A DNA stretch of 64,000 nucleotides from Eimeria praecox (GCA_963920595.1 OY986948.1:2170001-2234000); one strand, 5' to 3'; shown: positions 1-64,000, numbered from the stretch's first letter. Notes: generated by a model not told the origin, from the letters alone. Translations and numbers: made by a program.

Positions 1-3000
1 GGAAGAAGTATATCCTTCAAATCAGATCGAAGACATCTGTAAACTCACCAATCCAAGAAGCCCGTCATCAAAGAGCGAGTTTAACCCATACACCAATGCA
101 TGTGAATCTGTGTAGAAGGATAGATAAGGAAACCACTGGCAGATATCATCTCCCACACTTGCGGGAAGGCTCACTTTCTGCAAGTAAGACACCGCACAAA
201 CCCCATCCAAGCCAAGAATACAATGCAATGCATGCATCCGTATGAATCTGCTAGTTCAACAATGCAGCAATGCATATAATAAATCCTTCGAATCAAATCA
301 AAAATATTAGATAAACTCGCCGATACAATAAACCCAGCGAAATGGTAGTTCAGTGGATTTTACACCACTGCATGGGAATCTGTGTCGAAGGACAAGGAAG
401 ACACTGACACATGCCATCTCTCTCGCATGGGCAAAAACGCTTACTGGCTGCAAGTCAGTCATCGCTCATGCTCCATCCAAGCCAAAATACAATGCAGTGC
501 ATGCCCTTCAAAGAATATGCCTGTTCAAGCATGCAGCAGTGCAGGAAGAAGTATATCCTTCAAATCAGATCAAAGACATTTGTAAACTCACCAATCCAAG
601 AAGCCCGTCGAAAAGCGAGTTTAACCCATACACCAATGTATGTGAATCTGCGTCGAAGGATAGATAAGGAAACCACTGGCAGATATATCATCTCCTACAC
701 TTGCGGGAAGGCTCACTCTCTGCAAGTAAGAAAGCGCACAAACCCCATCCAATACAAAAATACAATGCAATGCATGCGGAGGTATGAATCTGCCAGTTCA
801 ACAATGCAGCAGTGCATCTAATAAATCCTTCGAATCAGATCAAAGATAAACTCGCCGATACAATAAACAAACCAAAATGCTAGTTTTAGCGGATTTTATA
901 CCACTGCATGTGAAACTTTGTCGAAGGAGAATGTAGCCACTGGCACAGGCCATGTCTATCCCGCATGGGCAAAAAAAAAGCTTACTGCCTGGAAGTCATT
1001 CATCGCGTAAACACCATCCAAGCCAAAATACAATGCAGTGCATCCCTTCCTAAGAATCTGGCTGTTCAAGGGTGCAGCAATGCATCTAATAAAACCTTCA
1101 AATCAGATCAAAAATATTAGATAAACTCGGCGATACAATAAACCCACCGAAATGGTAGTTTCAGTGGATTCTACAACCACTGCATGTTAATCTGTGTCGA
1201 AGGACAAAGAAGCCACTACCACATGCCATATTTATCTCTTATGGCGAAAAGAGCTTACTCCCTGCAAGCCATTCATCGCACAAACCCCATCCAAGCCAAA
1301 ATACAATGCAATGCATGCCCTTCTGTGAACCTGCCCGTTCAACCATGCAGTAATGCATCAAGAAATAAATCCATCGTATCAGATCAAAAATATTAGTTAA
1401 CTCGCCGATACAATAAACCCACCGAAATGTCCGTTCGGGCGACGTTCGCAACCACTACGTGTGAATCTGTATCGAAGGACTAGGAAGACACTACCACATG
1501 TTATATCTCTCTCGCATGCGCAAAAGGACCTTACTGTCTGCAAGCCATTGACCGCTCAAACCCCACCCAATACAAAAATACAATGCAATGCATGCTTCCA
1601 AAGAATCTGGCTGTTCAAGCATGCAGCAATGCATCTAATAAATCTTTCAAATCAGATCAAAAATACTAGTTAACTCGCCCATACAAAAAAACATACCAAA
1701 ATCCTAGTTTCAGTGGATTCTACAACCACTGCATGTTAATCTGTGTTGACGGACAAAGAAGCCACTGGCACTTGTCATATTTATCTCGCATGGGCAAAAG
1801 GAGCTTACGTCCTGCAAGCCATTCATCGCACAAACCCCATCCAAGCCAAAATACAATGCAGTGCATGCATTCCTATAAATATGCCTGTCAAGCACGCAGC
1901 AGTGCAGGAAGAAGTATATCCTTCAAATCAGATCGAAGACATCTGTAAACTCACCAATCCAAGAAGCCCGTCATCAAAGAGCGAGTTTAACCCATACACC
2001 AATGCATGTGAATCTGTGTAGAAGGATAGATAAGGAAACCACTGGCAGATATCATCTCCCACACTTGCGGGGAAGGCTCACTTTCTGCAAGTAAGACACC
2101 GCACAAACCCCATCCAATACAAAAATACATATGAATATGCCTGTTCAAGCATGCAGCAGTGCATCAAGAAGTATATCCTTCAAATCCGATCAAGGACATC
2201 TGTAAACTCACCAATCCAAGAAGCCCGTCGAAAAGCGAGTTTAACCCATACATCAATGCATGTGAGTCTGTGTAGAAGGATAGATAAGGAAACCACTGGC
2301 TGATTTCATCTCCCACACGTGCGGGGAAGGCTCACTTTCTGCAATTACGACACCGCACAAGCCACATCCAATACAAAAATACAATGCAATGCATGCATAG
2401 GTATGAATCTGCCAGTTCAACAATGCAGCAATGCATCTAATAAATCCTTCGAATCAGATCAAAAATATTAGTCAACTCGCCCATACAAAAAACACACCAA
2501 AATCCTAGTTTCAGTGGATTCTACAACCACTGAATGTTAATCTGTGTCGAAGGACAAAGAAGCCACTGGCACATGTCATATTTATCTCTTATGGCGAAAA
2601 GAGCTTACTCCCTGCAAGCCATTCATCGCACAAACCCCATCCAAGCCAAAATACAATGCAATGCATGTCCTTCTGTGAACCTGTCCGTTCAAGCACGCAG
2701 CAATGCATCAAGAAGTAAATCCGTCGTATCAGATCAAAAATATTAGTTATCTCGCCGATACAATAAACCCAAAGAAATGCCCGTTCCGGCGACGTTCGCA
2801 ACCACTACGTGTGAATCTGTATCGAAGGACTAGGAAGACACTACCACATGTTATATCTCTCTCGCATGCGCAAAAGGACCTTACTGTCTGCAAGCCATTG
2901 ACCGCTCAAACCCCACCCAATACAAAAATACAATGCAATGCATGCTTCCAAAGAATCTGGCTGTTCAAGCATGCAGCAATGCATCTAATAAATCTTTCAA

Positions 3001-6000
3001 ATCAGATCAAAAATACTAGTTAACTCGCCCATACAAAAAAACATACCAAAATCCTAGTTTCAGTGGATTCTACAACCACTGCATGTTAATCTGTGTTGAC
3101 GGACAAAGAAGCCACTGGCACTTGTCATATTTATCTCGCATGGGCAAAAGGAGCTTACGTCCTGCAAGCCATTCATCGCACAAACCCCATCCAAGCCAAA
3201 ATACAATGCAGTGCATGCATTCCTATAAATATGCCTGTCAAGCACGCAGCAGTGCAGGAAGAAGTATATCCTTCAAATCAGATCGAAGACATCTGTAAAC
3301 TCACCAATCCAAGAAGCCCGTCATCAAAGAGCGAGTTTAACCCATACACCAATGCATGTGAATCTGTGTAGAAGGATAGATAAGGAAACCACTGGCAGAT
3401 ATCATCTCCCACACTTGCGGGAAGGCTCACTTTCTGCAAGTAAGACACCGCACAAACCCCATCCAAGCCAAGAATACAATGCAATGCATGCATCCGTATG
3501 AATCTGCTAGTTCAACAATGCAGCAATGCATATAATAAATCCTTCGAATCAAATCAAAAATATTAGATAAACTCGCCGATACAATAAACCCAGCGAAATG
3601 GTAGTTCAGTGGATTTTACACCACTGCATGGGAATCTGTGTCGAAGGACAAGGAAGACACTGACACATGCCATCTCTCTCGCATGGGCAAAAACGCTTAC
3701 TGGCTGCAAGTCAGTCATCGCTCATGCTCCATCCAAGCCAAAATACAATGCAGTGCATGCCCTTCAAAGAATATGCCTGTTCAAGCATGCAGCAGTGCAG
3801 GAAGAAGTATATCCTTCAAATCAGATCAAAGACATTTGTAAACTCACCAATCCAAGAAGCCCGTCGAAAAGCGAGTTTAACCCATACACCAATGTATGTG
3901 AATCTGCGTCGAAGGATAGATAAGGAAACCACTGGCAGATATATCATCTCCTACACTTGCGGGAAGGCTCACTCTCTGCAAGTAAGAAAGCGCACAAACC
4001 CCATCCAATACAAAAATACAATGCAATGCATGCGGAGGTATGAATCTGCCAGTTCAACAATGCAGCAGTGCATCTAATAAATCCTTCGAATCAGATCAAA
4101 GATAAACTCGCCGATACAATAAACAAACCAAAATGCTAGTTTTAGCGGATTTTATACCACTGCATGTGAAACTTTGTCGAAGGAGAATGTAGCCACTGGC
4201 ACAGGCCATGTCTATCCCGCATGGGCAAAAAAAAAGCTTACTGCCTGGAAGTCATTCATCGCGTAAACACCATCCAAGCCAAAATACAATGCAGTGCATC
4301 CCTTCCTAAGAATCTGGCTGTTCAAGGGTGCAGCAATGCATCTAATAAAACCTTCAAATCAGATCAAAAATATTAGATAAACTCGGCGATACAATAAACC
4401 CACCGAAATGGTAGTTTCAGTGGATTCTACAACCACTGCATGTTAATCTGTGTCGAAGGACAAAGAAGCCACTACCACATGCCATATTTATCTCTTATGG
4501 CGAAAAGAGCTTACTCCCTGCAAGCCATTCATCGCACAAACCCCATCCAAGCCAAAATACAATGCAATGCATGCCCTTCTGTGAACCTGCCCGTTCAACC
4601 ATGCAGTAATGCATCAAGAAATAAATCCATCGTATCAGATCAAAAATATTAGTTAACTCGCCGATACAATAAACCCACCGAAATGTCCGTTCGGGCGACG
4701 TTCGCAACCACTACGTGTGAATCTGTATCGAAGGACTAGGAAGACACTACCACATGTTATATCTCTCTCGCATGCGCAAAAGGACCTTACTGTCTGCAAG
4801 CCATTGACCGCTCAAACCCCACCCAATACAAAAATACAATGCAATGCATGCTTCCAAAGAATCTGGCTGTTCAAGCATGCAGCAATGCATCTAATAAATC
4901 TTTCAAATCAGATCAAAAATACTAGTTAACTCGCCCATACAAAAAAACATACCAAAATCCTAGTTTCAGTGGATTCTACAACCACTGCATGTTAATCTGT
5001 GTTGACGGACAAAGAAGCCACTGGCACTTGTCATATTTATCTCGCATGGGCAAAAGGAGCTTACGTCCTGCAAGCCATTCATCGCACAAACCCCATCCAA
5101 GCCAAAATACAATGCAGTGCATGCATTCCTATAAATATGCCTGTCAAGCACGCAGCAGTGCAGGAAGAAGTATATCCTTCAAATCAGATCGAAGACATCT
5201 GTAAACTCACCAATCCAAGAAGCCCGTCATCAAAGAGCGAGTTTAACCCATACACCAATGCATGTGAATCTGTGTAGAAGGATAGATAAGGAAACCACTG
5301 GCAGATATCATCTCCCACACTTGCGGGGAAGGCTCACTTTCTGCAAGTAAGACACCGCACAAACCCCATCCAATACAAAAATACATATGAATATGCCTGT
5401 TCAAGCATGCAGCAGTGCATCAAGAAGTATATCCTTCAAATCCGATCAAGGACATCTGTAAACTCACCAATCCAAGAAGCCCGTCGAAAAGCGAGTTTAA
5501 CCCATACATCAATGCATGTGAGTCTGTGTAGAAGGATAGATAAGGAAACCACTGGCTGATTTCATCTCCCACACGTGCGGGGAAGGCTCACTTTCTGCAA
5601 TTACGACACCGCACAAGCCACATCCAATACAAAAATACAATGCAATGCATGCATAGGTATGAATCTGCCAGTTCAACAATGCAGCAATGCATCTAATAAA
5701 TCCTTCGAATCAGATCAAAAATATTAGTCAACTCGCCCATACAAAAAACACACCAAAATCCTAGTTTCAGTGGATTCTACAACCACTGAATGTTAATCTG
5801 TGTCGAAGGACAAAGAAGCCACTGGCACATGTCATATTTATCTCTTATGGCGAAAAGAGCTTACTCCCTGCAAGCCATTCATCGCACAAACCCCATCCAA
5901 GCCAAAATACAATGCAATGCATGTCCTTCTGTGAACCTGCCCGTTCAACCATGCAGTAATGCATCAAGAAGTAAATCCGTCGTATCAGATCAAAAATATT

Positions 6001-7430
6001 AGTTATCTCGCCGATACAATAAACCCAAAGAAATGCCCGTTCCGGCGACGTTCGCAACCACTACGTGTGAATCTGTATCGAAGGACTAGGAAGACACTAC
6101 CACATGTTATATCTCTCTCGCATGCGCAAAAGGACCTTACTGTCTGCAAGCCATTGACCGCTCAAACCCCACCCAATACAAAAATACAATGCAATGCATG
6201 CTTCCAAAGAATCTGGCTGTTCAAGCATGCAGCAATGCATCTAATAAATCTTTCAAATCAGATCAAAAATACTAGTTAACTCGCCCATACAAAAAAACAT
6301 ACCAAAATCCTAGTTTCAGTGGATTCTACAACCACTGCATGTTAATCTGTGTTGACGGACAAAGAAGCCACTGGCACTTGTCATATTTATCTCGCATGGG
6401 CAAAAGGAGCTTACGTCCTGCAAGCCATTCATCGCACAAACCCCATCCAAGCCAAAATACAATGCAGTGCATGCATTCCTATAAATATGCCTGTCAAGCA
6501 CGCAGCAGTGCAGGAAGAAGTATATCCTTCAAATCAGATCAAAGACATCTGTAAACTCACCAATCCAAGAAGCCCGTCATCAAAGAGCGAGTTTAACCCA
6601 TACACCAATGCATGTGAATCTGTGTAGAAGGATAGATAAGGAAACCACTGGCAGATATCATCTCCCACACTTGCGGGGAAGGCTCACTTTCTGCAAGTAA
6701 GACACCGCACAAACCCCATCCAATACAAAAATACATATGAATATGCCTGTTCAAGCATGCAGCAGTGCATCAAGAAGTATATCCTTCAAATCCGATCAAG
6801 GACATCTGTAAACTCACCAATCCAAGAAGCCCGTCGAAAAGCGAGTTTAACCCATACATCAATGCATGTGAGTCTGTGTAGAAGGATAGATAAGGAAACC
6901 ACTGGCTGATTTCATCTCCCACACGTGCGGGGAAGGCTCACTTTCTGCAATTACGACACCGCACAAGCCACATCCAATACAAAAATACAATGCAATGCAT
7001 GCATAGGTATGAATCTGCCAGTTCAACAATGCAGCAATGCATCTAATAAATCCTTCGAATCAGATCAAAAATATTAGTCAACTCGCCCATACAAAAAACA
7101 CACCAAAATCCTAGTTTCAGTGGATTCTACAACCACTGAATGTTAATCTGTGTCGAAGGACAAAGAAGCCACTGGCACATGTCATATTTATCTCTTATGG
7201 CGAAAAGAGCTTACTCCCTGCAAGCCATTCATCGCACAAACCCCATCCAAGCCAAAATACAATGCAATGCATGTCCTTCTGTGAACCTGTCCGTTCAAGC
7301 ACGCAGCAATGCATCAAGAAGTAAATCCGTCGTATCAGATCAAAAATATTAGTTATCTCGCCGATACAATAAACCCAAAGAAATGCCCGTTCCGGCGACT
7401 TTCGCACCCCTGCGTGTGAATCTGAATCGA
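1..7430. repeat. Near-identical higher-order repeats of 3256 bp (12 monomers) and 1350 bp (5 monomers)
   Basis: Identical ORF-track peptides recur at offsets of 3256 (353/3609, 1184/4440) and 1350 (1733/3083; near-identical at 5790/7140). Cassette positions follow the same offsets (175/3431, 1259/2609). Confidence 0.95.
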
Positions 7431-10400
7431 AGGACTAGGAAGACACTACCACACGTTATATCTCTCACATGGGCAAAAGGAGCTTACTAGCTGCAAGTCA
7501 TTGACCGCTCAAACCCCACCCAATACAAAAAATACAATGCAATGCATGCTTCCAAAGAATCTGGCTGTTCAAGCATGCAGCAATGCATCTAATAAATCCT
7601 TCGAATCAGATCAAAAATATTAGTTAACTCGCCCATACAAAAAACACACCAAAATCCTAGTTTCAGTGGATTCTACAACCACTGCATGCTAATCTGTGCC
7701 GAAGGACAAAGAAGCCACTGGCACATGTCATATTTATCTCGCATGGGCAGAAGGAGCTTACTCCCTGCAAGCCATTCATCGCACAAACCCCATCCAAGTC
7801 AAAATACAATGCAATGCATGCCCTTCTGTGAACCTGCCCGTTCAAGCATGCAGCAATACACCAAGGAATAAATCCGTCGTATTAGATCAAAAATATTAGT
7901 TTACTCGCCGATACAATAAACCCACCGAAACGTCCGTTCGGGCGACTTTCGCACCACTGCGTGCGAATCTGTATCGAAGGACTAGGAAGACACTACCACA
8001 TATTATATCTCTCACATGGGCAAAAGGAACTTACTAGCTGCAAGTGATTGATCGCGCAAACCCCATCCAATACAAAAATACACTGTCTGTTCAAGCATGC
8101 AGCAATGCATCTAATAAAACCTTCAAATCAGATCGAAAATATTAGCTAACCCGCCCATATAAAAAACACAACAAAGTGCTAATTGCAGCAGATTTTACAC
8201 CCACTGCATGTGAATCGAAGGAGAAGGAAGCCACTGGCAGATATCATCTCGCGCGCTTGAGGGTAAAGCTCACTTTCTGCAAGTGAGACATCGCACAAAC
8301 CCCACCCGATACAAAAATACAATTCAATGCATGCCTTTATAGGTATATGCACGCTCAGCGGTGCAGCCGTGGAGCAAGAAACAAATCTGTCGTATCAGAT
8401 TAAAAATATTAGTTAATTCGCCGATACAACAAACCCACAGAAATGCTAGTTTCAGCAAAATTTGCACCACTACATGTGAATATGTGTCGAGGACAAGGAA
8501 GCCACTACCACATGCCATACTTATCGCTGATGCGCAAAGGGAGCTTACTCCCTGCAAGTCATTCATCGCTCAAACCCCACCCACGCCCAAATACAATGCA
8601 ATGCATGCCCTCTGAACCTGCATGTTCAAAGATGCACCAATGCAGCAAGAAGTATAACCTTCAAATCAGATCAAAAATATTAATTAACTTGCCGATACAA
8701 CAAACCCACTGAAATGCTCGTTCCGGCCATTTTTATACCCCTCTATGTGAATCTATGTCGACGGTCAAGGATGCCACTGGCACATTTCATACCTATCTCG
8801 TCTGGGCAAAAAAAATACTTACAACCTGCAAGTCAGTCATCGCTCAAGCCCCATGAAATATAGAAATACAATGTAAAGCATATCCTGTGAACCTGCACGT
8901 TCAAATATGCACCAATACAGCAAAAAATATATCCTTCAAATCAGATCAAAAATATTAATTAACTCGCCAATACAAGAAAGCGACGGAAATGTTAGTTTGA
9001 GCGGAGTCTACATCACCGCATGCCAGTTTGTGTCGACGGACAAGGAAGCCATTGGAACATGCCATCTATCTATCTCCCATGGGCAAAAAGCCTTACTGCC
9101 TGCAAGTCACTCAGCACTCAAACCCGATGCAATACAAAAATACAATGCAATGCATGCCTTTCCAAGAATCTGCCTGTCCAAAGAAGCAGCAGTGCAGCAA
9201 AGAATATATCCCTCAAATCGGATCAAAGGCATCTGTAAACTCACCAATCCAACAAACCCGCCGAAAAGCGGGTTAAAGTCATATACCACTGCATGTGAAT
9301 CTGTGCCTAAGGACAAGGAAGCCACTGGCACACGTCATATCTCTCGAGAATGGGCAAAAAAAGCTTACTCCCTGCAAGCCATTCATCGCACAAACCCCAT
9401 CCAAGCGAAAATACAAAGAAGTGCATTCCTATCACAGATGCAGCAATGCACCTAATAAAGCCTTCGAATCAGATCAAAAATATTAGTTAACTCGCCCATA
9501 CAAAAAACACACCAAAATGCTAGTTCCAGTGGATTCTACACCACTGCATGTGAATCTGGGTCGAAGGACAAGGAAGCCCCTACCACATGTCATATATCTA
9601 TCGCATCGGCAAGAAGAGCTTACTGTCTGCAAGACATTCATTGCTCAAACCCCATCCAACACTAAAATACAACGCAATGCATGGCTTTGTGGATCTTCCC
9701 GGTCCAGGATGCAGCCATGGAAGAACAAGCATGTCCTGCAAATCGGAGCAAAGCTATGTGTAAAATCACCAATCCATGAAACCCACCGGAAAGCGAGTTT
9801 AAGCCATACTGCATGTGAGACTGTGTCGAAGGACAAAGAAGCCACTGGCACATGCCAGATCTATTTCGCATGGGCAAAAACACTTACTACCTGCAAGCCA
9901 GTCATCCCATAAACCCTACCCAATATAAAAATACAATGTAATGCATGCCTCAGAATCTGCCTGTTTAAGGATGCAACAATGTAGCAAGAAATGTATCCTT
10001 CGAATCAGATCAAAAATACTAATTAACTCGCCGAAACAACAAACCAACGGAAATGCTAGTTTCAGCGGATTTCACATCACCGCATGTGAATCTTTGTCGA
10101 AAGACAAGGAATCCATTGACACATGTTATGCCCATCTCTCATCGGCAAAAAAAGCTTACTGCCTGCAAGGCATTCACGGCTCAACTCCCATCCAATACTA
10201 AAGTACAATTCAATGCATGCCTTTCTAGCTATATGCACGCTCATCGATGCAGCCGTGCAGCAAGAAACAAATCCGTCGATCAGAGTAAAAATATTAGATA
10301 ACTCGCCGATACAACAAACGAACGGAAATGCTAGATTCAGCAAATTCTACACCACTGCATGTGAATAAGTGTCGAAGGACAAGGAAGTCGCTGGCACATG

Positions 10401-13400
10401 CCGTATCTATCGCGCATGGGCAAAATGCTTACTTCCTGCAAGTGAAACATAGCTCAAACCCCACCGAAGCCAAAATACAATGCAATGCATGTCCTCTGAA
10501 CCTGCATGTTCAAAGATGCACCAATGCAGCAAGAAACATATCCTTCAAATCAGATCGAAAATTAACTCGCCGATCCAATTAACCCATCGAAATGCTCGTC
10601 CCGGCGATTTTTACACAACTGCAAGTGAATCTGTGTCGATGGACAAGGGAGCCACTGGCGGATGCCATATCTATCTCGCGTGGGCAAAAAGACTTACTAC
10701 CTGCAAGTCAGCCATCGCACAAACCCCAACCAATATAAAAGTACAATGTAATGGATGTCCTCCTGTGAATCTGCACGTTCAAAGATGCACCAATGCAGCA
10801 AGAAATATATCCCCCAAATCGGATCCACAATATTAATTAACTCGCCGATACAACAAAGCGACGGAAATGCTACTTGTAGCAGGTTTTACACAACTGCGTG
10901 CGAATCCGTGTCGACGGCCAAGGAAGCCACTGGAGCACGTCATATCTATCTCGCATGGGCAAAAATAGCTTACTGCCTGAAAGTCATTCAGCACTTAAAC
11001 CCCATCCAATACAAAAATACAATGCAATGCATGCCTTTCTAGAGCCTGCCTGTTCAAAGACGCAGCACTGCAGCAAAGAAGTATATCCTTCAAATCAGAT
11101 CAAAGGCACCTGTAAACTAACTAACCCAACATGCCTGTCGAAAAGCGAGTTTAACCTGTACAGCAATGCATGTGAATCTGTGTCGAAGGATAAGGAAACC
11201 ACTGGCAGATATCATCTCCCACACTTGCGGGGAAGGCTCACTCTCTGCAAGTAAGACACCGCACAAACCCCATCCAAGCCAAGAATACAATGCAATGCAT
11301 GCATTCGTATGAATCTTCCAGTTCAACAATGCAGCAAAGCATCTAATAAATCCTTCGAATCAAATCAAAAATATTAGATAAACTCGGCGATACAATAAAC
11401 CCACCAAAATGCTAGTTTCAGTGGATCTTACACCACTGCATGGGAATCTGTGTCGAAGGATAAGGAAACCACTTCCACATGCTATATCTCGCATGGGCAA
11501 AAGGAGCTTACTCCCTGCAAGGCATTCATCGCTCGAACCCCATCCAATACAAAAATACAATGCAATGCATGCCTTTCTGTGAACTTGCCCGACCCAGGAT
11601 GCAGCTGCACAACAGAGCAAAGTTATGTGTAAACTCACCAATCCATGAAATCCGCCGGAAAGCGAGTTCAAGCCATGCATCACTGCATGTGTGACTCTGT
11701 AGAGGGACAAGGAAGCCATGGGCGCATGTCAAATCTATCTCGCATGGACAAAAAAAACTTACTACCTGCAAGTCATTCATCGCGCAAACCCCATCCAAAG
11801 AAAAATGCAATGTATTGCATGTCTTTCTGTGAACCAGCGCGTTCAAAGGCCCACCAATGCAGCAAGATCAAAAATATTAGTTAACTCGTCGATATAAGAA
11901 ACCAACCGAAATGTTCAGCAGGTTTTACACGACTCCGTGAGAATCTGTGTCGACGGATAAAGAAGGCACTGGAACATGTCATACCTATCTCGCATGGGCA
12001 AAAAAACTTACTGCCTGCAAGGCATTCACCGCTCAAACCCCATCCGATACAAAAATACAATGCAATGCATCCATTTCTAAGAATATGCCTGTTCAATGAT
12101 GCAGCGAAGTAGCAAGGAATATATCCTTCAAATCAGACCAAAGGCATCTGTAAACTCACCAATCCAAGAAACCCGCCGAAAAGCTAGTTTAAGCCATAAA
12201 CCACTGCATGTGAATGTATGTCGAAGGCTAAGGAAGCCTCTGGCCCACGCCAGATCTATATCACATGGACAAAAAAGGCTTACTCCCTGCAAGTCATTCA
12301 TCGCTCAAACCCCACCCAAGACCAAAATACAATGCAGTGCATGCCTTCCTATCAATCTGCCTGTTCAAGGATGCAGCAATGCAGCCAGGAATAAATGCGT
12401 CGAATCAGATCAAAAATATTTGCTAATCTGCTGATAGAAAAAACCCACCGAGATGTCTCTTTCAGCGGATTTTACATCAATGAATTCGAATCGGTGTCGA
12501 GGACAAGCAATCCACTGGCACATGTCAGATCTATCTCCTATGGGCAAAAGGAGCTTACCCGCTGCACGTCATTCATCGCCCAAACCCCAAGCAATATAAA
12601 AATACAATGTAATACATGTCCTTCTGTGAACCAGCACGTTCAAAGATGCACCAATGCAGCAAGAAATATATCCTTCAAATCAGATCAAAAATATTAATTA
12701 ACTCGCCGCTACAACAAGCCGACGGAAATGCTAGTTTCAGAGGATTCTACACCACTGCGTGCGAATCTGTCATGGAAGCCACTGGGACACGTACCTATCT
12801 CGCATGGGCAAAAAAATGCTTACGATCTGCAAGTCATTGATCGCTCAAAATCCATCCAATACAAAAATACAATGCAATGCATGCTTTCCTATGAATCTGC
12901 TTGTTCAAAGACGCAGCAATGCATCAAGAAATAAATCCGTTGTATCAGATCAAAAATATTAGCTAACTCGCAGATACAACAAACATGCCGAAATGCTCGT
13001 TTCAGCGGAATTTGCACCACTGCATGTGAATCTTTGCCGAAGGACAAGGAAGCCACTGGCACATGACATCTCTCTCCTGCAGGGGAAAAAAGCTCTTACT
13101 CCCTGCAAGCCATTCATCGCCCAAAACCCATCCAATACAAAAATAGAAGGCAATGCACGTCTTTGTGAAATTGCCTGTTCAAAGCCCGAGCAGTGGAGCA
13201 AGAAATATATCCTTCAAATCAGATCAAAATTATTTAACTCGCCGATACAACAAACCCACCGACATCCTAGTTCTAGCGGATTTTACATCACTGCATGTGA
13301 ATCTGTGTCGAAGCACAAGGAAGCCACTGGTACATGCCATGTCTATCTCGCATGGGCAAAACAAGCTTACTCCCTGGAAGTCATACAACGCTCAAACCGC

Positions 13401-16400
13401 ATCCGATACAGAAATACAATGCAATACATGCCCATCTAAGAATCTGCCTGTTCAAGGATGCAGCAGTGCAGCACGAAGCATATCCTTCAAATCAGATCAA
13501 AAACATCAATAAACTCACCAATCCAAGAAACCCGCAAAAAAGCGAGTTAAAGTCATGCAGCACTGCATATGAATCTGTGTCGAAGGACAAGGAAACCCGT
13601 GGCCGATATGATCTCTCGCGCTTGCGGGAAAAGCTCACTTCCTGCAAGTGAGATATCGCTTAAACACCATCCAATACAACAGTACAATGCAATGCATATC
13701 CTTCTAAGAATCTGTCCGTTCACAAACCCAGCAGTGTAGCAAAGAATATATCCTTCAAATCAGATCAAGAATATCAGTAAACTCACCAATCCAGCAAACC
13801 CACCGAAAAGCGAATTTAAGCCATACACTGCATGCGAATCTGTGTCGAAGGCCAAGCAAGGCACGGGCGCATGTCATATCTATCTCGCGTGGGGAAAAAA
13901 TGCTTACTGGCTGCAAGCCATTCATCGTTCATATCCCATCCAATACAAAAATACAATGCAATGCATGCCTAAGCATATGCCTGTTCAAAGATGCACCAAT
14001 GCAGCAAGAAATATATCCTTCGAATCAGATCAAAAATATTAGTTAACTCGCCGATACAATAAACCCGCAGAAATGCTAGTTTCAGCGGATTCTACACCCA
14101 CTGCATGTGAATCTGTGTCGAAGGACAAGGAAACCACCGGCGCATGTCATATCTAGCTCGCATGGGGAAAAGGAGCTTACTGGCTGCAAGCCATTCATCG
14201 CTCAAACCCCATCCAATACAAGAATAAAATGCGATAGGTGTCTGCCTCAGAATCTGCATGCTCAAGGATGCAGCAATGTCGTAAGAAAATTATTATTCCC
14301 TTCGAATCAGGTCGAAAATATTAGTTAACTCCCCAATCCAAGAAACCCAGCGAAATGCTAGTTTCAGCGGGTTTTACACTAATTCGCGGAATTCCATGTC
14401 GATGCAGAAGGAAGCCACTGGCACATGCCATGTCTCTCATGGACAAAACAAGCTTACTAGCTGCAAGCCACTCATTGCGCAAACCCCATCCAATACAAAA
14501 ATAGAAGGCAATGCAAGCCATCTAAGAATCTGCCTGTTCAAGGATGCAGCAATGCAGCACGAAACATATCCTTCAAATCAGATCAAAAACATCAGTAAAC
14601 TCACCAATCCGAGAAACCCGCAAAAAAGCGAGTTAAAGTCATACAGCACTGCGTATGAATCTGTGTCGAAGGACAAGGAAACCCGTGGCCGATATGATCT
14701 CTCGCGCTTGCGGGAAAAGCTCACTTCCTGCAAGTGAGATATCGCTTAAACACCATCCAATACAAAAGTACAATGCAATGCATGCCTTCCTCAGCTTCCT
14801 TCTTTTCAAGGGTGGAGCAAAGCGGCATGAAATATATCCTTGCAATCACGCCAAAAATATTAACTCGCCGATACAACAAATCCACCGAAATGCTAGTTCG
14901 GGCAATTCATACATCACTGCATGCGAATCTGCGTCGAAGGACAAAGATGCCACTAGCACATGCCATATCTGTCTCGCATGGGGAAAAAAAGCTTACTCCC
15001 TGCACGTGGAACATCACTCAAAACCCATACAAAAACAGAATGCAATGCATGCCTTTCTAAGAACCTGCCTGTTCAACGATGCAGCAATGCCGCAAGGAAT
15101 AAATCCTTCAAATCAGATCAAAAACATTACTTAACTGGCCCATACAAAAAACCAACCGAAATGCTAGCTTCAGCGGATTCTACACCACTGCATGCGAACC
15201 TTTGTCGAAGGACAAGGAAGCCACTGGTGCATGCCATATCTATCTCACATGGGCAAAAAGAGCTTACTATCTGCAAGCCATTTATCGCCCAATCCCCATC
15301 CAATACAAAAATACGATGCAATGCATGCCCTTCCAAGGATATGCTGCTCAAGCATGCAACAATGCAGCAAGGCGTATATCCTTCAAATCAGATCGAAAAT
15401 CTTAGTTAACTCCCCCCCCCAAAACTTACTCCCTGCAAGTCGTACATCGCTCAAACCCCGTCCAATAAAAAAACAATGTAATGCATGTCCTCTGAACCTG
15501 CCTGATCAAGGATGGAGCAATGCGGCAAGAAATCTACCCTTCAAATCAGGTATGATCGAGGATTGAGCCATGCAACTAATGTATCCTTCAAATCAGGTCA
15601 AAAGCATTAGCTAACTCGTCGATACAACAAACCGACGGAAATGCTAGTGTCAGCGGATTTTACATTACTGCATGCGAATCTATGTCTAAGGACAAGGAAG
15701 CGGCTGGCACATGCCATATCTATCTCGCATGGGCAAAAAAACCTTACTGCCTGCCAGTCATTCAGCGCTTACGCACCACCCAGTACAAAACTGCATTCCA
15801 ATGGATAGCTTTATCAAACTCTGCCTGTTCAAGCATGCAGCAGTGCAGCAAGAAATATGTCCTTGGTATCAGATCAAAGACATGTGTAAACTCACCAATC
15901 CAAGAAATCCGCCAAAAAGCGAGTTTAAGCCCTACATCGCTGCATGCGAATGTGTGCCAAAGGTCCAGGAAGCCACTGGCGCATCTCGCATGGGCAAAAA
16001 AAACTTACTACCTGCACGTCATTCACATCTCAAACCCCCTCCCAGACAAAAATACAATGCATCTCCTTCTTAGAGTCTGCATGTTCAAAAATGCACCAAT
16101 GCAGCAAGAAATATATCAGATCGAAAATATTAGTTAACTCGCCGATACAACAAACCCACCGAAATGCTAGTTCCAGCGGATCTTACATCACTGCATGTGA
16201 ATCTGTGTCGAAGCACAAGGAAGCCACTGGCTCATGCCATGTCTACCTCGCAGGGGCAAAAAAACCTTACAACCTGCAAGACATTCATCGCTCCAACACC
16301 ATCCAATAGAAAATAAAACGCAATGCATGTCCTTTTGTGAGGCTGCGCGCTCAAAGGCGTAGCAATGCGGCTAGAAATATATCCTTCAAATCAGATCAAA

Positions 16401-17625
16401 AACATAAGTAAACTCACCAATCCAAGAAACCAGCCGGAAAGCGAATGTAAACCATACAGCATGTGCATGTGAATCGGTGTTGGAGGGAAGGAAACCAGTG
16501 GCAGATATCATCTCCCGCACTTGAGGGAGAATCTCACTCTCTGCAAGTAAGACATCGCTCAAATCCCATCCAATATAAAAATACGATGCAAAGCGTGTCT
16601 CTGCGAACCTGCCTGGTCGAGGTTTGAGCGATGCAACAAATATATCCTTTGAATCTGATCCAAAATATTAGTTAACTCGCATATACAACAGATGCACCGA
16701 AATGCTGGTTTTAGCGGATTTTACACCACTGCGTGCGAATCTTTATCGAAGGACAAGGAAGCCACAGGCACATGCCATACCTACCTCGCATGGAGGAAAA
16801 AATGCTTACTGGCTGTAAGTAATTTATCGCTCAAACCCCACCCAACACAAAAATAGAATACAATGCGTGGCTTTCTGTCAATCTGCCCGCTCGAGGATGG
16901 AGCTGAGCAGCAACAAACATCCTCGGAAATCAGATACCAGTAAGCTCACCAATCCAAGACACCCGCTCAAAACCGTGCAGCCATACATCACTTGCATGCA
17001 AATCTGTGTCGAACGACAAGGAAGCCATTGCCATATGTTATATCTATCTCGCATGGGCAAAAAGAGCTTACTAGCTGCAATTCATTCACCGCACAAACCC
17101 CATCCAATACGAAAAACGATGCAATGCATGCCTTTCTAAGAATCTGCATGTTCAAAGACGCAACGATGCAGCAAGAAATATATCCTTCAAATCATATCGA
17201 AAATATTAGTTAACTCCCCGCTACAACACACCCACCGACATGCTAGTTCCAGCGGATTCTACACCACTGCATGTGAATCTGTGTCGAAGGACAAGGACAC
17301 CACTAGCGCATGCCATATCTATCGCGCATGGGCAAAAACACTTACTCCCTGCAAGCCATTCATCGCTCAAACCCCATCCAATAAAAAAAAATACAATGCA
17401 ATGCATGCCTTTCTATGAATCTGCCTGTTCAATGATGCAGCGGCGCAGCAAGAAAGAAATCCTTCGAAGCAGATCAGAAATACTAGTTAACTCGACGGCA
17501 CAATAAACCCACCGAAAAGCTATTTTCAGTGAATTTTACACCACTGCGCGTGAAGCTGTGTCGAAGGACAAGGAAGCCACTGGCACATGCCATATCTCTC
17601 CCGCATGGGCAAAAAAGCGTACTCG
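175..17625 (-). CDS. 66 consecutive 3-nt exons, one per satellite monomer, encoding RGLPRVVAGIGELPPEGGIRGAVGRAVEAVTGAVGKLGLGKKDTGKKDTGARPKDTGKKDTGARPK
   Basis: Lowest plus coordinate and minus-strand codon, in transcription order: 17623 CGA, 17346 GGA, 17072 CTA, 16810 CCA, 16538 AGA, 16271 GTT, 16009 GTA, 15748 GCA, 15430 GGA, 15268 ATA, 14997 GGA, 14725 GAA, 14458 CTA, 14181 CCA, 13908 CCA, 13639 GAA, 13371 GGA, 13100 GGA, 12824 ATC, 12559 CGG, 12284 GGA, 12012 GCA, 11763 GTA, 11512 GGA, 11242 AGA, 10974 GCA, 10698 GTA, 10433 GAA, 10160 GCA, 9888 GTA, 9624 ACA, 9369 GGA, 9097 GCA, 8823 GTT, 8549 GGA, 8274 AAA, 8035 CTA, 7762 GGA, 7488 CTA, 7215 GGA, 6942 AAA, 6688 AAA, 6415 GAC, 6141 ACA, 5865 GGA, 5592 AAA, 5338 AAA, 5065 GAC, 4791 ACA, 4515 GGA, 4242 GCA, 3973 AGA, 3701 CCA, 3431 AAA, 3159 GAC, 2885 ACA, 2609 GGA, 2336 AAA, 2082 AAA, 1809 GAC, 1535 ACA, 1259 GGA, 986 GCA, 717 AGA, 445 CCA, 175 AAA. 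All are flanked by CAG and GTAAG/GTGAG (one GTACG). Confidence 0.82.
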
Positions 17626-20600
17626 CTGCAAGCCATCCATCGCTCAAACCCCATCCAACACAAAAATACAATGCAATACATGCCTTTCTATGAATCTGCC
17701 TATTGGAAGATGCAGAAATGCAGCAGCAAATATGTGCAAAAAGCCGAACAAAATGTGTATTGATAAGCCCGCCCTCCGAACTAGCAAGAATCCTGAAAAG
17801 CTGCGTTGAGCAATATACCCGCGCAAGTCAATCCTCCTCGAAGGGCTTTCTCCTACAAAGTATCTGCCTGACGTAGATAGCAAGCAAATCGCTCCCACTT
17901 CCTAAGTGGCTTTTGTCGCTACTTTAGCGCACTCTCTGCAGAAGAAGGCGTTAAAGAGAATAACTTGCTTGAACGGTAAACAAAAGCATAAATTGTGTCT
18001 GCTTGCTAAGAGCCCGAATTACCGGAACCAGCATGCTCCCTGCAAGTGTGCAGCCTTCGCACAAGGGGTGGTGCTGCTGCAAGCGAGTGCGTAGCATGGC
18101 CTGGGATAGACGACGCACATCCTGCAAATCCATGTTCTACCCCTATTCCCTTTGCGAGCATTCCTAAGCCCTACAGCCCTACGAAATAAAGTGGACGTCA
18201 GTATAGTACTGAAGAGAGCCGGATGGTCTCACTATTCCCGGTGAAGACAGCATAAGCAGCACCATTTAGTCAGACATTCTTCCAGTTGCATCGATGTCCA
18301 GGTACACCTGCACTTTCCCCCGAATCCGGTAAGTCCTCGCACCTTCGCGAAAGCAGGGCAAAAACAATCCTGTCACCACTGTTGCGCATCCAGTCGGTCA
18401 CATATAGATTTAACCACATGCGCAGCTTGAAGGCGCAACTCCTTCCTGTCCCGATATGGTTGCCAAGAAGGTAGCAGTAGGTAACAGAGGTCCGCCAGGC
18501 ACACACCACTGCTTTTCAACGGGGACTCTGTACCACGCAATCCAACGCGATGTCGGCAGGGAAGTGCAGTGAATGGTCGAAAGTGTTTAAACTTGAATCT
18601 AGTTAGCGCCCAAGTGCAAGAAGCCGAACACTACTGCTAAGAGCTCTATAATGCCATCAGGGGCATTGTTCGTGTATCAGGCTGCTTCAGTAACCACATT
18701 TGCCTCTGGGTATCGAATATACCCTGTAAGTATCGGATAAGAAAATGTTACACCTGGTGCTTAGCTTATTAGATGCAATGAGATTCCCCACATTACTGTG
18801 CACATCAATCTGAACCGCGAGGCTCGCCCGAGCGGTCTACACCTTTGACCAAGCTCTAGTAACTGTCGTAATGGCCGCCCTCACGACCTAAGCAGCCTTG
18901 GTTGAGTGGGCCGCAATCGACGGCGAGCGCATCCTCTGCACTGTAAACACTGGTGCTGACGTACTGCCTGTGCCGTGATTTGCATATACGTTGCGCCACG
19001 TTGCGGCATGCAGAAGTGCCCCTAATGCCACAGCCCTAAGTATATCTGCCAAAATGTGTCGGTAACCTTCCTTCAGGTAAACCAGTGCGCCGACAAAGTG
19101 TGCCTTTCTAAGGATCTAACGCATTGCCTGCTTTCCAAGGCAGACGAGAAGCATGCTGCAGAAGCATGCTGCAATTAGCAAGAAACCGCTGCCGTTCTGG
19201 TATTCAACCATGGTACACTCCTACACTGCACAAGAATTTCTCCTTCGAATTCCTTCTTCCTTGTCACGTAGCGCACGTCCTGCACGATTAGAAATAATGC
19301 AAAAAGAACGCATTGGCATTCAAGCATGAACAACACTTCCTACGCAAGAAACGATTACACACTAAAACAGACTAGTGACTCCGAAACTGCTTGCACTGCA
19401 GCATCTCTTCCATGCAAAACGAAAATGAACCCACTTTCTGTGCAATCCCACAGCCGCAACACTGCATCAAACAGCTTCAGCAAGGCGATATGCGAAAACC
19501 CGAATATCTCCCTGGTGGACGCCTGCCTCAAACGGCGCAATGCTTGCCATGGTTATCATGCTAAAGGTGTTTTCACACACCAGCAAGATGTGCAGCATAC
19601 AACTGCATATTATTTTCGTGAAGTCGGCAGCAATCGTACGCGATGCAAGCCGACCACCGCTGAAATCTCGTATGATAATAGGAAATGAGACGCATGAGGC
19701 AGGCTTAATACAGCTCACTGCCGCCATTACACGCCGCTTGCAACTGTTGCAGATGCTCTCATTTGTATTGTCAACCTCAGGATGAGAATGTAGCCTACGT
19801 CCTGGGACAGGAAAAATCACTGCATGGTAAAACAAGAAGTGTCATGCATAGTTATTCTGCATATCCACAGAAAAGGGTCGTGCATCTCTCCGATCAAGCC
19901 CTACAGAAACGAATGCGCATTGTTTGTTAACGAGGTATTCTACCGCCAGGCCTCCAAATGGCCTGCCCAAATCGCCGGGTGAGATATGGAGCCGCACAAG
20001 CTGCACAGGTAAGAATAAAAAGTCAACACCCCTCACTCAAAGGCCATGAATTTCATATACCTACTGGGAGGTCGGCAAGCGTTGCCGAAACCCTTCGCAC
20101 TGCATCGCTTCTTGCATGCGGGATGGCATTGGACTCTCTTCATGAGCAATCCCACCGAAGTACCAGCCCGTCAAATGGCCTCAGAATCACGAGACACAAG
20201 CCCAATTTTGCTCAGCTCAGAATGTCCTTTGCAAATAGTGCAATCATGATCACGCCGCAGCTGTTAGCAAGTACAAGCAATTTGCTCATCCGTTCGATTG
20301 CATGTTGCCGTCCATCACCCGATACGTTCCACAAGCGAGGCTTCGCAGTGAAACCCTTGTGCAGGTCAACCCAACAGCGTTGACCACAACATTTGCACGG
20401 TAACAGAATGCACTATCAATGCTATATGTCAACTATTCGCCAACGCAAATCTATGCCAGAAAGATAGCATACACTGCTTGTAGAATAACTGAAGCCTCGC
20501 CCAACAGACTAACCCCAAATCAGATGGAGAATCGCACTCTCTGCACAAAACAAATTCATTAGTGCGCTTGTTTAGCAATCGCAAACAAGCAGCATATCCC

Positions 20601-23600
20601 TGAAGCGCAATTGCTTAGCACTGACAACTCAATTCGCTGTATAGGAAGGAAGCCCATGTTGCAGCCTCATATGTTTCAATGCCCTACCCTCAAAATCTTC
20701 CTTCCGAACCTCTTTTGACAAACTCCTGCAAAACTCTAGAAGAGGCAGATCCCATCCCTGAGGAACCCGTACACAACCGAAACCCGCGCATTTGCACGGC
20801 TGGCAATAGTCTACCTACTCTCTAGTGGTGGAAGATCAAGAGAGCATTTGCTTTCCACATTGCAGCAGACCCCATACGCAGGCCTATTTGTCTTTGGCAA
20901 CTATGCAGCCACGTTCTGCTGTGTTGCAGATTGCACTACCGGGGGCTGCGCTCCGTCTGCCAAGGAAAGTGTGTCTGCTATAAGCTAAATTAGGAGTTCA
21001 TTACGTTGTACACGAGATAGTTGCCTGCCTGGATAGTTGCCTGCCTGGTGCTTTGTCTGCAGAACGTGCCCCTGCAACACTGATCTGTTTCTCCTTGTTA
21101 CTGGTAGTATTTATTGTATGCAGCGTCTGCTAAAAGTGAGGGAGCATACTTGCTGCAAGTGATGGAACCGGGGAGCACAAAAGGAGACACCTCGGGGGAG
21201 GCGCAGATGGCAACGTGGAGAAACCATAGCAAATACAAAAGCACTTGCGTCGGTTTTACCTCTAGGCTGCTTCGAATGCTCTGTGCATCAAACCAAACCA
21301 GCCGACGGCGTTTACCTGCAGCCACCTTCAAAGCAACCCTTACTTCCTGAGCCGAGGAAAGCACCCACCAAAGATCACTTGAACACAGCCCCTCAATCTT
21401 GCATATACACAACGCATATTTTCTTTGCACCCCTAATCTCTCAATAGTATCTTGCTCGTCAAACCAGACCGGCCAATGATGCTCAGGTGCTGTTGCCCTG
21501 CAAAGCAAGGCTCACTTTCTGGGCGGGGTAATAAGGCCATCCATCACCTTGCTTTTGAGATGCCCCACGACTCTTGCTGGCGTCTACGAAAAATGAATGT
21601 ATCCCAAATCCGTGCTGGCTCAATATTGGGCTCCCGGTGCCTCTCTTGCAATTGTCACCATCCTAATAACATATTGATGCCCACTGTATCCCCATGTTGT
21701 CAAGAGTGCCTAGAGCGCCAAGCTGCAGCCATTTTGCAAAGGAAGCCTCACTTTCTGAGGCGAGAAATAAAATCATAACATCGTTACAGGCTTCAAGAAT
21801 TCTGCATCTGCCTTCCTTAGCATGATCAAAGCATTCCTATCCCAAGTCTGCATACTTGACGCCTCGCTCTCGGCGGCCCTATGGAACACCGCATGCACGA
21901 AGTTGCGTGCAAAAAACAAAACAAGCATATGCTCGTCAAGCCGAAACATCACATCGGCAGGAGGAAGCACACATCATCACAAGCGTCCTGACATTCGCTG
22001 CAGCATGAAAAGTGCGCACAAGCATACCTAGGTGGTAACGTACGTACTGGCACCAAACACCAACCTGTTGCTGCCTTACAGCTGAACAATGTTCAGCCCT
22101 AGAACCGGCACTAACCTGATATAGAAAGTTCTTGTTGTTCGTCGAATGTCCCCTCCAGTGTGTGCAACTCACTTTCTGGGGGATGGGGTACCCGCTTTTT
22201 TGAACCATCCTCTTGAACGGCCTATGCCCGTAGGAGATTCACCACCACCGGCATCTGCTTGATGCCAAGAGAGTGGCGGCGGCAGATGTATTGGACTGCA
22301 GCATGCCGCAGCAACCTAATGCCGACACTGCAGCCTCGCGTGCAATTACGCACGCTGATACGTACGTCGCCATGGAGTAAGATTGAACACAGGAACTAAA
22401 TATCCTGCTCCGCGGCTTCTGGCATGCAGCTGCTTACTCTCTGTGCAGAAGTATACAAGCCCAAAATCTAGCTCGTTACCTTACAAGGTAAGGTTCTGCA
22501 AACCAAGTTCTAAAGGACAATAAACAGTATGCGCGGGTCACACTGTTTAGAAAGCTCCTTACCGTCTAAACCAGAAAAGGACCACCGCACCGACAGCAAT
22601 AAACTCCTCCTAGCCATTCCTTTAGTAGAAGCAGCTCTGTATGCGTTCATTGTCATAAGCGCAATAGGCCACACAATCTGCCCCCCATGAAACGGTAACG
22701 GTTTTATCTTGTATCTGCTACTTCATCTGAAGAACAAGAACTACTTACCGCCTGCGCAACAAGCAGCCGCTTACCGAAGAGGCCTTCCCTACACGAAGAC
22801 GGACTATGTGGTGCAGAGAAACTGCGTTTCCTTATTGTATTAACACTCCAGGAGCCCACTGCACAGCCTATTGCTCTACACTTCAACAAATTGAACGCAC
22901 ATCCTGCACGTTCCATCGGCCTTACCGCGTGCTCTATTGTATAGTTTGACTGCTGCAAATGAAAAAAGCCTGAAGGGGATCCATCTAACTCCACCGCCCG
23001 ACGCACAGTGAGAATGCACGAAGCCTTCAACAGAACTTTCCACAGCTAGCAGCACTCAGACATCCTGGCTCTCATCTGAATGTGCGGACGCCGACGCACC
23101 TCCTTTAGCAAATAATCACTCGCTATCTAGCCTTCATCAAAAGCCGCACAGAAGTACCCCCAGAACTCATTTTGGATGCTGCGAGCGCCCAACCGATATA
23201 ATGACCACAACACCACTCACTCGCTGAAACAAATATATCCACACTGACAACGCCAATGAATTCGTACCAATCATGACCAATACGAAAAAGCTTCGGATTC
23301 TTATCGCCTTCCTGACAGTAAATAATTCCCCCAGCCCGTGGAATGTAAGGGCCTTCAACACTTCCGACTTACACCCTGAGCATGGAGAATCCCCAGCCAC
23401 TCCGATTCCTCGCCAATTGGGAACCGTCGCCAGGCCAAAACGTTGTACTTAGTCTAGCTCCCGGAGGGTCCATGACACACTTGCTGAGCCGCAGAATGCC
23501 CACGGGCGAACCGCTTCCTGACGGGCAGGTTTACAATGGCACTTTCACAACGTCAGCCAATCTACTCTGACAGTCCACCTCGACAGGAAAATTGCTTCTG

Positions 23601-32600: not shown

Positions 32601-34378
32601 TTATACGACCGGCGAACTGCATTGCTTCCACACACGAATTTCAAGTGTATGAGGTTTCCCCAGTGATCTCCAAGAGTCAACTGCACAAAATTTTGACCGC
32701 ATTATTTTCAACAAAGACATATTCAGATTGTATTCACCACTTCGTCGGTCACATTTCACCCCCTGTTTAATGTCTTTAACAAAAGACGCACGTACTGTAT
32801 GCATACCCAGCGTGCGGGGTTTAATAAAATCCACCACCAGCAGAATGCATTCAAACCCCTATTGGTGTGCCGAACTAAACTGCTAGCATGCGAAAAAAAC
32901 ACTCCTGTGCTCAGAGTACCATTCACAGCGCTCCCTGAAATAAGGGCCAGGCAACTTATCATGTCTATTCTGCTTCACGTGACGCACTGCCTGTAATTAG
33001 ACAGCTTGTAGACAAAACTGAACATTAGGATGTCAGGAGGATATCGTGCACTGCCAAGCTCCCTCCCAAAGGTTTGTATTCACGCTACTTGACGTGCTAA
33101 CCTCTTTACGCAACAGTGATGTCACACATAACAGTTCTCCTAAGCTTCCCATGATCGATCTGGCTCACATCCTTCATGTTCAGCATGCCGCTTGAATGCA
33201 AATGGAGCATGCACTTAGAACTGTAGAAAGCTTCATACCTGTCTACAGCCCACTAGGGGTATGCCTACGACAAAACCTAAACGATTGGTTTGAAATGCAT
33301 ATCTAGCAGATGTAATTCGCATAGTACGCCACTGAGAGTGTAATGTGCCCATGCATTTGCCACTGATTAAAATAAAATGGCGTACATCCTGTTTTACCCC
33401 ACAGCGCGAAACGCCAAACGTTGCTGCCCCTGGCAGAAAGGCCATATATGCAGGCGAAAAGGCACACCAACAGCAGCCGTGGTCTTCAACCCGAAATTTT
33501 CAGGGACTGCTGCAGCTCTGCGGCGCCAGCCAAACATGCCCTCAGCATCCTGGCGCCCTCCACTACCTCAAGTGCCCCGCGCATGCCATACATCCCATAG
33601 CAGTCAACGCAGAGGCTCTGATTTTGTGAGCTGCTACTAATTGAGCATCACCTAGTAGCTGTTTCTACCTTAGCCATCTCGAAATATCCATCTCGAGATG
33701 GTTGTTCCTTCCCTGTAGGATTGCTGAAGTAGTGCTATGCACGCACTGCCTGAAGGTAATGCAGCAAGCAGGCGCATTTGCGAATATCCTCGAACATCCC
33801 TTCGAAACACCGGTACAATACTTCAGTAATTCCAAGCTTTTCACACCGTGCCAGGTCAAGTGTAGTGCCCGAGTACCTGCCCATGTCGAGTATGATGACG
33901 GTTGGAACTCACCGCCTGCACGGTATATCCCTAGTAGCGCGACACTCACCACTGTAGTAAAGACACCCCTGTGATCCAATCAATGAAGTGTGAAGGCAGC
34001 ATGGCATCAACCACCACGATGCGCACTTGCTGAATGCCGAGAAACGCCACCCTGTCACAAAGGCAAGCTCTCAAAGTAAAACTAGGCTTTGTCACCGCCG
34101 CAAGGCATTCACCCCTGCGTTGGATGCACACGACTTGCATAATTCTTGCAAATCTATCCGGATGGATGATGGCGCCTGCGATGCTGTACCTGCGCAGTCT
34201 GCCCACACTGCCCCTAAAGCCAGTCACACCTAAATGCTTTACAGGGTGGAAGGGACGGACTTGCTGCAAGTATCATTAGACCCTACGATCCGTGGTGTCA
34301 ATATAATGCTTGCAAGTCCAGAGGCCACACTGTCCCGAAGCTACCCTAATGAAGAAAGATGAGTAAACCTGAACACTG

Positions 34379-34429
<51 letters not shown>

Positions 34430-63800: not shown

Positions 63801-64000
63801 CTACAAATTAAAAATACGAAAATAATAATTGACCGGGCTCACTGATCCCTATAGCCGCCATACACAAAATATATAGCCCTCAATACACCACAATGCTTGT
63901 CAAACGCCCCACCATAGTGAATCCAATCGAAAAAAAGAAGCCGCATTGCCCTGAAGTACCCCTATCCTCCAGCCGGCACAGTCAAGTCGCCTCACGCTAA

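Follow-up and report, generated by a model that had tools for sequence, protein, structure and literature searches.

Predicted 3-nt exons and their splice signals

The DNA analyzed here, referred to as the window, is a 64-kb stretch from Eimeria praecox (GCA_963920595.1 OY986948.1:2170001-2234000; positions are counted from its first letter), along which a chain of candidate exons of three bases each can be read on the minus strand. According to the reading that we favor, and that we regard as quite probable, the window is the interior of a single minus-strand spliceosomal gene with some 230 or more such exons, which would be separated by phase-0 introns and would each encode one amino acid. 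The exons are predictions, all of them called from splice signals in the DNA: across the whole window there are 230 minus-strand sites of the form AG/NNN/GT, 66 of them in a tandem array, 135 between 17.7 and 53 kb, and 29 in duplicated blocks beyond 53 kb. The features are:

1..5939, no strand assigned: exact higher-order duplication within the array, positions 1-2683 being identical to 3257-5939, with more exact runs at offsets 1350 and 4606 (self-comparison).
175..17625, minus strand: array of 66 tandemly repeated units (~272 bp), each made up of a single predicted intron and a single 3-nt exon in which bases 1 and 2 are hypervariable and base 3 is mostly A (repeat period, splice signals, tree).
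17933..52260, minus strand: chain, for the most part non-repetitive, of 135 3-nt exons called at a score of at least 8, with a median spacing of 206 bp and no stop triplet.
34877..35020, minus strand: the exon pair 35020-35018 and 34879-34877 (called sites) cited in the initial annotation, whose junction contributes one of the 11 frame +2 stops.
53002..63800, minus strand: 29 called 3-nt exons in duplicated blocks (~2.2 kb; similarity mostly 72-93%), where splice signals have been lost from some paralogous sites.
54048..57650, minus strand: another array of tandem repeats, likewise with a period of 272 bp (54048-55417 and 56835-57650), with a GAA exon in each unit (8 copies).

The spacing of three bases stands out even with an untrained consensus (YAG, k bases, GTRVGY). 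On the minus strand there are 57, 96 and 34 matches at k = 3 in the parts 1-17.7, 17.7-48.5 and 48.5-64 kb, compared with no more than 7, 10 and 11 when k takes another value between 0 and 30, and with 0-4 matches on the plus strand. Similarly, a matrix trained on 17.7-53 kb finds 127 sites at k = 3, whereas other spacers (0-39) give 3-15 and the plus strand 0-8. Calls in the non-repetitive part are those with a score of 8 or more; from plus-strand controls we estimate that about 4 of these 135 calls are false and that about 20 real sites lie below the threshold. The predicted introns have a median length of 262 nt, and the exons make up 1.1% of the span. Because the stretch from 17.7 to 48.5 kb is almost without self-similarity (a 166-bp duplicate and a palindrome are the exceptions), the 135 sites can for the most part be counted as independent observations. 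The same lack of self-similarity led us to reject a mobile introner origin for the non-repetitive introns.

The surroundings of the sites resemble those of spliced introns in several respects. AG is almost missing over the 13 positions upstream of the acceptors (a frequency of 0-0.03 at each position from −1 to −13, compared with ~0.07 for 1226 control YAGs), and T, then A, is enriched at −12 to −8; a YTRAY branch motif upstream of the acceptors is weak, being found in 19% of cases versus 16% in controls. When sites are picked by acceptor score and GT alone, G is found at +5 in 89 of 95 and at −1 in only 13 of 95. The +4 position of the non-repetitive donors is C in 46 and A in 27 of 95; in the array it is A in 65 of 66 units. 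Outside the k = 3 set, strong donors (47, versus 34 on the plus strand) and strong acceptors (76 versus 87) are near the plus-strand background, so that few exons of any other length are to be expected, and at spacer 3 there is no excess either of GC donors or of a hidden class of exons with G at −1 and without G at +5. Among the duplicated exons, splice signals have been lost at 58857, 53715 and 62654, and paralogous positions with GC donors are found at 62586 and 60431; we regard these as single-codon exons that are dying or weakening.

It could be argued that none of the sites is spliced, the array being a satellite and the remainder chance or the decayed relic of a gene. This would agree with the exact recent duplication that makes up part of the array, with the presence of dead sites, and with the plain satellites in metagenome contigs that fit the same pattern (for example loci L014, L044 and L070). 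We consider it highly improbable, because the 135 sites lie mostly in DNA without self-similarity, on one strand, with one spacer, an AG-free zone and no stop triplet, and because a satellite gives no cause for two bases between AG and GT to outpace 244-247 of 247 other columns in the rate analysis given below.

Reading phase of the exons

The initial annotation had proposed that each exon is a codon, and two independent properties of the chain can be compared with that proposal. The first is the distribution of stops. Read in phase 0, the 135 non-repetitive exons include no stop triplet, where 5.5 are expected (column-shuffle p ~0.001, with the same outcome at three thresholds); if TAG is left out, as splicing itself might bar it, TAA and TGA alone give 0 versus 4.7 expected (P 0.009). 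Frames +1 and +2 show no stop avoidance, since their counts match those of shuffled exon order: frame +1 has 3 junction stops in the non-repetitive part (shuffle mean 3.0) and 7 in the array (7.5), where, as had been reported, it reaches a TAG after 6 codons; frame +2 has 11 in the non-repetitive part (shuffle mean 12.1) and 4 in the 5′ blocks. The frame +2 stop that had been singled out at the 35018/34877 junction does exist, and 10 other non-repetitive junctions stop likewise.

The second property is the rate of change at each exon base. On a tree of the array units built from their introns, exon bases 1, 2 and 3 require 15, 24 and 5 parsimony changes, compared with a median of 5 and a maximum of 18 for intron columns. 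With columns held out of tree building, the exon bases require 15, 23 and 5 changes, and at least 15 changes are seen in 3 of 247 intron columns, at least 23 in none of the 247. Bases 1 and 2 of the array thus change 3-4 times faster than intron sites, whereas base 3 keeps to the intron rate, as a silent site would. Since a silent base should not outrun neutral DNA, and since only base 3 behaves as silent, the wobble position is best placed at base 3. Together, the stop and rate tests support well the conclusion that each exon is a codon in phase 0, as had been proposed. The codon-position rate test also yields the reading phase of such a chain without a complementary DNA. On the assumption that the intron columns are approximately neutral, the fast change at bases 1 and 2 points to diversifying selection in the array.

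Base composition at the third position

The initial annotation had further seen in the frequency of A at base 3 of the array a sign that the wobble base is tuned for splicing. The count itself is correct: 58 of the 66 triplets end in A, the others in C (5), T (2) and G (1), and half of the 8 exceptions are GAC triplets (at 6417, 5067, 3161 and 1811) whose identical or near-identical flanks bear out their origin by duplication. The remaining exceptions are GTT at 16273 and 8825, ATC at 12826 and CGG at 12561, none of which is forced by the code. The meaning given to the count does not hold, because the units are copies of one founder. At 3% distance the 66 units collapse into 49 clusters, of which 44 end in A; in 142 of the 247 intron columns the majority base is retained as well as in base 3, or better (median 0.91); and the 5 changes of base 3 on the tree equal the intron median, with A-consensus intron columns averaging 5.9. 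It is thus likely that the 88% of A at this base was mostly inherited by repeat copying.

A smaller bias is also present in the non-repetitive exons. Their synonymous choices (n = 132) comprise A 60, T 41, C 17 and G 14, compared with 31-33, 38-45, 22-29 and 32-35 expected from the intron context, so that A is about twice the intronic expectation (p ~5e-7). In the boxes that offer only A or G, A is used 28 times and G 3 times of 31 (17 G expected, p ~1e-7), whereas in the four-fold boxes the shortfall of G is mild (11 of 66, 15-17 expected, p 0.37). CAG and AAG are missing altogether, as against 17 CAA and AAA (Fisher p 0.025 against the four-fold boxes with G 11 and A 32); a single AAG is found in the duplicated blocks, at 56398. 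Once GAG is included the ratio of NAG to NAA is 2:21 against 11:32 in the four-fold boxes, which is not significant (p 0.12). AGA occurs 6 times and AGG not at all. Over all 135 exons, G and C are both low at base 3 (17 and 17) and T is as expected, and when the second base is T, A rarely follows (2 of 22).

For a wider comparison we searched metagenome contigs for runs of three such sites, which yielded 87 loci, none of them similar to the window (blastn, E 1e-4). Seventeen of the 87, picked by eye as diversified and non-redundant, were used for codon comparison, the other 70 being dropped as redundant, as single-triplet satellites or as too short. The 572 triplets of these 17 loci, whose units are not independent within a locus, end in A 128, C 94, G 128 and T 222 times and include 2 stops; CAG and CAA occur 1 and 6 times, AAG and AAA 4 and 23 times, GAG and GAA 23 and 16 times. 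As A accounts for just 128 of the 572, an NNA pattern does not characterize one-codon exons in general; a scarcity of CAG and AAG may do so.

Two explanations compete for the bias. The first is the strong form of the earlier proposal, in which splicing holds base 3 at A, bars NAG and by itself marks the phase. It is favored by the excess of A in the non-repetitive exons, by the scarcity of G in A/G-only boxes and by the absence of CAG and AAG, which are also scarce in the 17 other arrays where GAG, a poor acceptor, is common; the lack of hidden exons with G at −1 and without G at +5 agrees with it as well. We nonetheless judge it unlikely. Base 3 of the array changes at the intron rate, A is scarce after a second-place T, the deficit of NAG as a whole is not significant, and the other arrays end in T, G or C as often as in A, with the reservation that units within an array are not independent. 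The suggestion that many non-A endings are imposed by the code holds in part: of the 75 in the non-repetitive region, 34 are D, N, Y, H, C, F, W or M codons and 41 are not. The proposed avoidance of NAGNAG acceptors fits the absence of CAG and AAG and the scarcity of G in the A/G-only boxes, but C is low too, which it does not explain, and AGG is likewise missing.

According to the second explanation, the residual preference for A and T at base 3 is simply the codon usage of the organism, independent of splicing. The joint depletion of G and C with T at its expected level is the pattern of a preference for A/T endings, and rarity of NTA codons is a common trait of codon usage. This too seems doubtful: the introns have ~49% G+C, and coding third positions with 25% G+C are generally unusual in such DNA, while the loss of G is sharper in the A/G-only boxes (3 versus 17) than in the four-fold boxes (11 versus 15). 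A weaker, splice-linked bias toward A remains plausible. The data fit the idea that a competing acceptor immediately upstream of the donor is avoided and that GAG, which makes a poor acceptor, is tolerated there, the low C being left over. Base 3 would then be a nearly neutral wobble position, and the prevalence of A in the array would combine a founder effect, a weak preference for A and avoidance of CAG and AAG.

Proposed gene and comparison with known systems

In the gene that we propose, the chain would grow by tandem duplication of a cassette made of one intron and one codon, each event adding one residue without ever shifting the frame, and loss of a splice site would remove one residue, the frame again being kept. 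Both gain and loss of cassettes are visible in the window, the former as duplications of one or several units, the latter as the paralogues with lost signals described above. Donor recognition would take place on the intron side (nearly fixed G at +5, rare G at −1), and the three exon bases would thereby be available for coding. From what is established about splicing in general, an exon of three bases is too small to be recognized across itself, so that the introns of the chain probably undergo intron definition and are removed stepwise. The array bases that change amino acids would be under diversifying selection, as expected of a recognition or host-interface protein.

The predicted product is, in order, acidic on the 5′ side, mixed with aromatics in the middle, then G/A/V-rich, and ends in a K/D/T/G repeat. 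In the older array units hydrophobicity has a helix-like periodicity (autocorrelation 0.40 at lag 4, p 0.008 uncorrected), which comes partly from old multi-unit duplications.

Several observations weigh against the reading of the window as the interior of one gene of one-codon exons. Splicing is deduced solely from signals in the DNA. Both ends of the gene fall outside the window, so that start, stop and phase have no ordinary exon to anchor them. Outside the array, 19 gaps longer than 380 bp contain no site scoring 8 or more (of 25 gaps listed, the duplicated blocks included), and either the calls are incomplete or these introns are long. Frame +2 is open across the array taken alone, where it is rich in R, K, S and T (20, 13, 12 and 9 of 65), as the initial annotation had stated. 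The rate at bases 1 and 2 is measured relative to intron columns taken as neutral; if all of these columns were constrained, base 3 would be constrained as well. In the non-repetitive part the order of residues is weakly structured, with hydrophobicity autocorrelations at p ~0.05 for lags 2 and 4 among 16 statistics tried. Finally, we were unable to place the protein in any family. The longest stop-to-stop open reading frame (ORF) in the window is not above 210 amino acids; a Pfam scan gave 0 hits in the 36 ORFs scanned of 85 listed, and an Rfam scan of the window gave 0 hits.

These results can be compared with what is known of other genes with very small exons, for which we cite the portions of the source texts that were available. 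In NACHT-ankyrin (nank) genes of Tuber, tens of codon-sized exons are spliced, and alternatively so (Iotti 2012 via PMC4986451, PMC13449251). The window resembles them in its runs of consecutive codon-sized exons (here 230 predicted sites) and in a likely protein-diversifying role. It differs from what these sources describe in the number of mini-exons, tens in nank genes as compared with at least 230 over 64 kb with no ordinary exon seen, and in having ~135 exons with mostly unrelated introns. The NACHT and ankyrin sequences of nank genes were not seen in the window, where the same 36 of 85 listed ORFs gave no Pfam hit and the gene ends lie outside. Of 15 ORFs from the metagenome loci compared to Pfam, 4 match NACHT/ankyrin-type families, and one matches PEX11 below the cut-off. 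Four loci (L010, L021, L047 and L061) have NACHT-type and ankyrin hits in a long ORF adjoining an array of 16-65 triplets; judging by sequence, they are putative nank-like genes in metagenome contigs. Their spacing of ~64-73 bp contrasts with the median intron of 262 nt in the window.

Micro-exon genes (MEGs) of Schistosoma, Echinococcus and Hymenolepis consist mostly of tiny 3n exons that can be skipped in frame (PMC10526429, 10.1101/2020.04.08.031872). Those of S. mansoni are described as having 10-20 exons, mostly of 15 bp, and a signal peptide (PMC10526429), and an operational rule for MEGs specifies at least 7 exons, at least half of them under 70 nt and divisible by 3, in runs of at least 4 (10.1101/2020.04.08.031872). 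By prediction the window falls under this operational rule, with no excess of other exon lengths, but its at least 230 predicted exons, essentially all of 3 nt, are ten times as many as in the MEGs so described, and shorter. That a single 3-nt exon between AG and GTAAGT can be spliced is known from micro-Ex8 of Drosophila hth, by reverse transcription PCR and a donor mutant (PMC7392893); as described, micro-Ex8 is a lone exon between ordinary exons, whereas the window has a chain. In plant microexons the two flanking introns are likely removed one after the other (PMC8831610). The donors can be compared with the NN//GURAG class of 5′ splice sites, which has G at +5 and any base at −1 and leans on U6 rather than on U5 loop 1 (PMC11732430). 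The window agrees in its nearly fixed +5 G and free −1 position; the A at +4 of this class is general in the array and is not the rule in the non-repetitive donors. As presented in this source, the class accounts for tolerance of bases other than G at −1, not for a preference for A. We found no report of hundreds of consecutive 3-nt exons, coccidian or other, in a search that largely excluded subscription journals. Relative to the known genes with codon-sized exons, what would be new here is the scale, about ten times that reported, and the 135 exons with unrelated introns.

How such a gene would be used is a separate matter. The exons may be cassettes that are skipped combinatorially, and the gene would then yield a library of variants that differ from one another in single residues; such skipping does not conflict with a gene of one-codon exons, and we rate its chances at slightly less than even. 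Phase 0 is the sole phase in which any subset of exons stays free of stops, the splice-site scores spread widely, from 5 to 23, the array shows diversifying change, and there are precedents in the nank genes of Tuber and the MEGs of flatworms (PMC4986451, PMC13449251, 10.1101/2020.04.08.031872, in the portions available). On the other hand, the hydrophobic periodicity at lag 4 suggests that the order of neighbors matters. We put forward still more tentatively, as rather improbable, a wider conjecture: the whole protein, folded domain included, would be spread over more than 64 kb with a separate exon for each codon, each residue being singly skippable, so as to form a codon-addressable library of variants whose newest part is diversified by positive selection. 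The ~135 exons with unrelated introns would then mean that the layout is old and stable, rather than a passing repeat expansion.

If spliced, the proposed gene of one-codon exons is extreme, with ~1.1% of its span in exons and some 230 splicing events for some 230 residues. It would make testable how the spliceosome joins long chains of 3-nt exons, whether donor strength on the intron side frees exon bases, and how introns are born by duplication of a unit of intron plus codon. Gene finders and read aligners do not see genes of this kind, and whole families may therefore be missing from annotations.

Some further comparisons were made with contigs assembled from DNA runs, of which three, from two studies, contain 20001-29900; no RNA run is among those listed. 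Over 17700-37600 the contigs include a second, similar copy, an allele or a paralogue, which differs at 519 places in 19.9 kb; the similarity of some contigs is 90-95%. Forty of the 519 places were inspected and none lies within a called exon, a number too small for testing; over the same interval, with all 30 bins covered, 3 joints were found in the contigs, none of which read as a splice joint. With regard to motifs, TGCATGCA occurs 4 times in the window versus 1.1 expected, TTTAGGG 4 times versus 4.4 expected, and CAGCAGCAG 2 times; a coccidian origin is not supported by these motif counts.

Other metagenome loci have diversified arrays as well. In L001, L002, L005, L011, L015, L058 and L069 these consist of 22-76 triplets at ~68-70 bp spacing, with no NACHT hit in the ORFs scanned, L001 having 76 triplets in 5.6 kb. 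Varied triplets at 258-270 bp spacing, nearer to the intron length of the window, are found in L008, L009, L053, L054 and L027.

Within the window, the two arrays at 54048-57650 and 175-17625 share a period of ~272 bp and are unrelated in sequence (local alignment score 19, shuffle mean 18.2); the common period is possibly a preferred intron length. A rearranged unit of the main array at 15270-15600 has a short spacing (162 bp) and a run of G right after the donor at 15432. Predicted introns contain a (GT)n run of 23.5 copies (34381-34427) and a 72-bp imperfect palindrome (34782-34852). The 166-bp duplicate lies at 41272-41860 and its copies are 77% alike; the one at 41458 is preceded by an exon, the other has no called matching site. 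Lastly, the sense strand of the duplicated blocks (48501-64000) is strongly enriched in G and T (0.33 and 0.32), and its cumulative skew is steeper than elsewhere.

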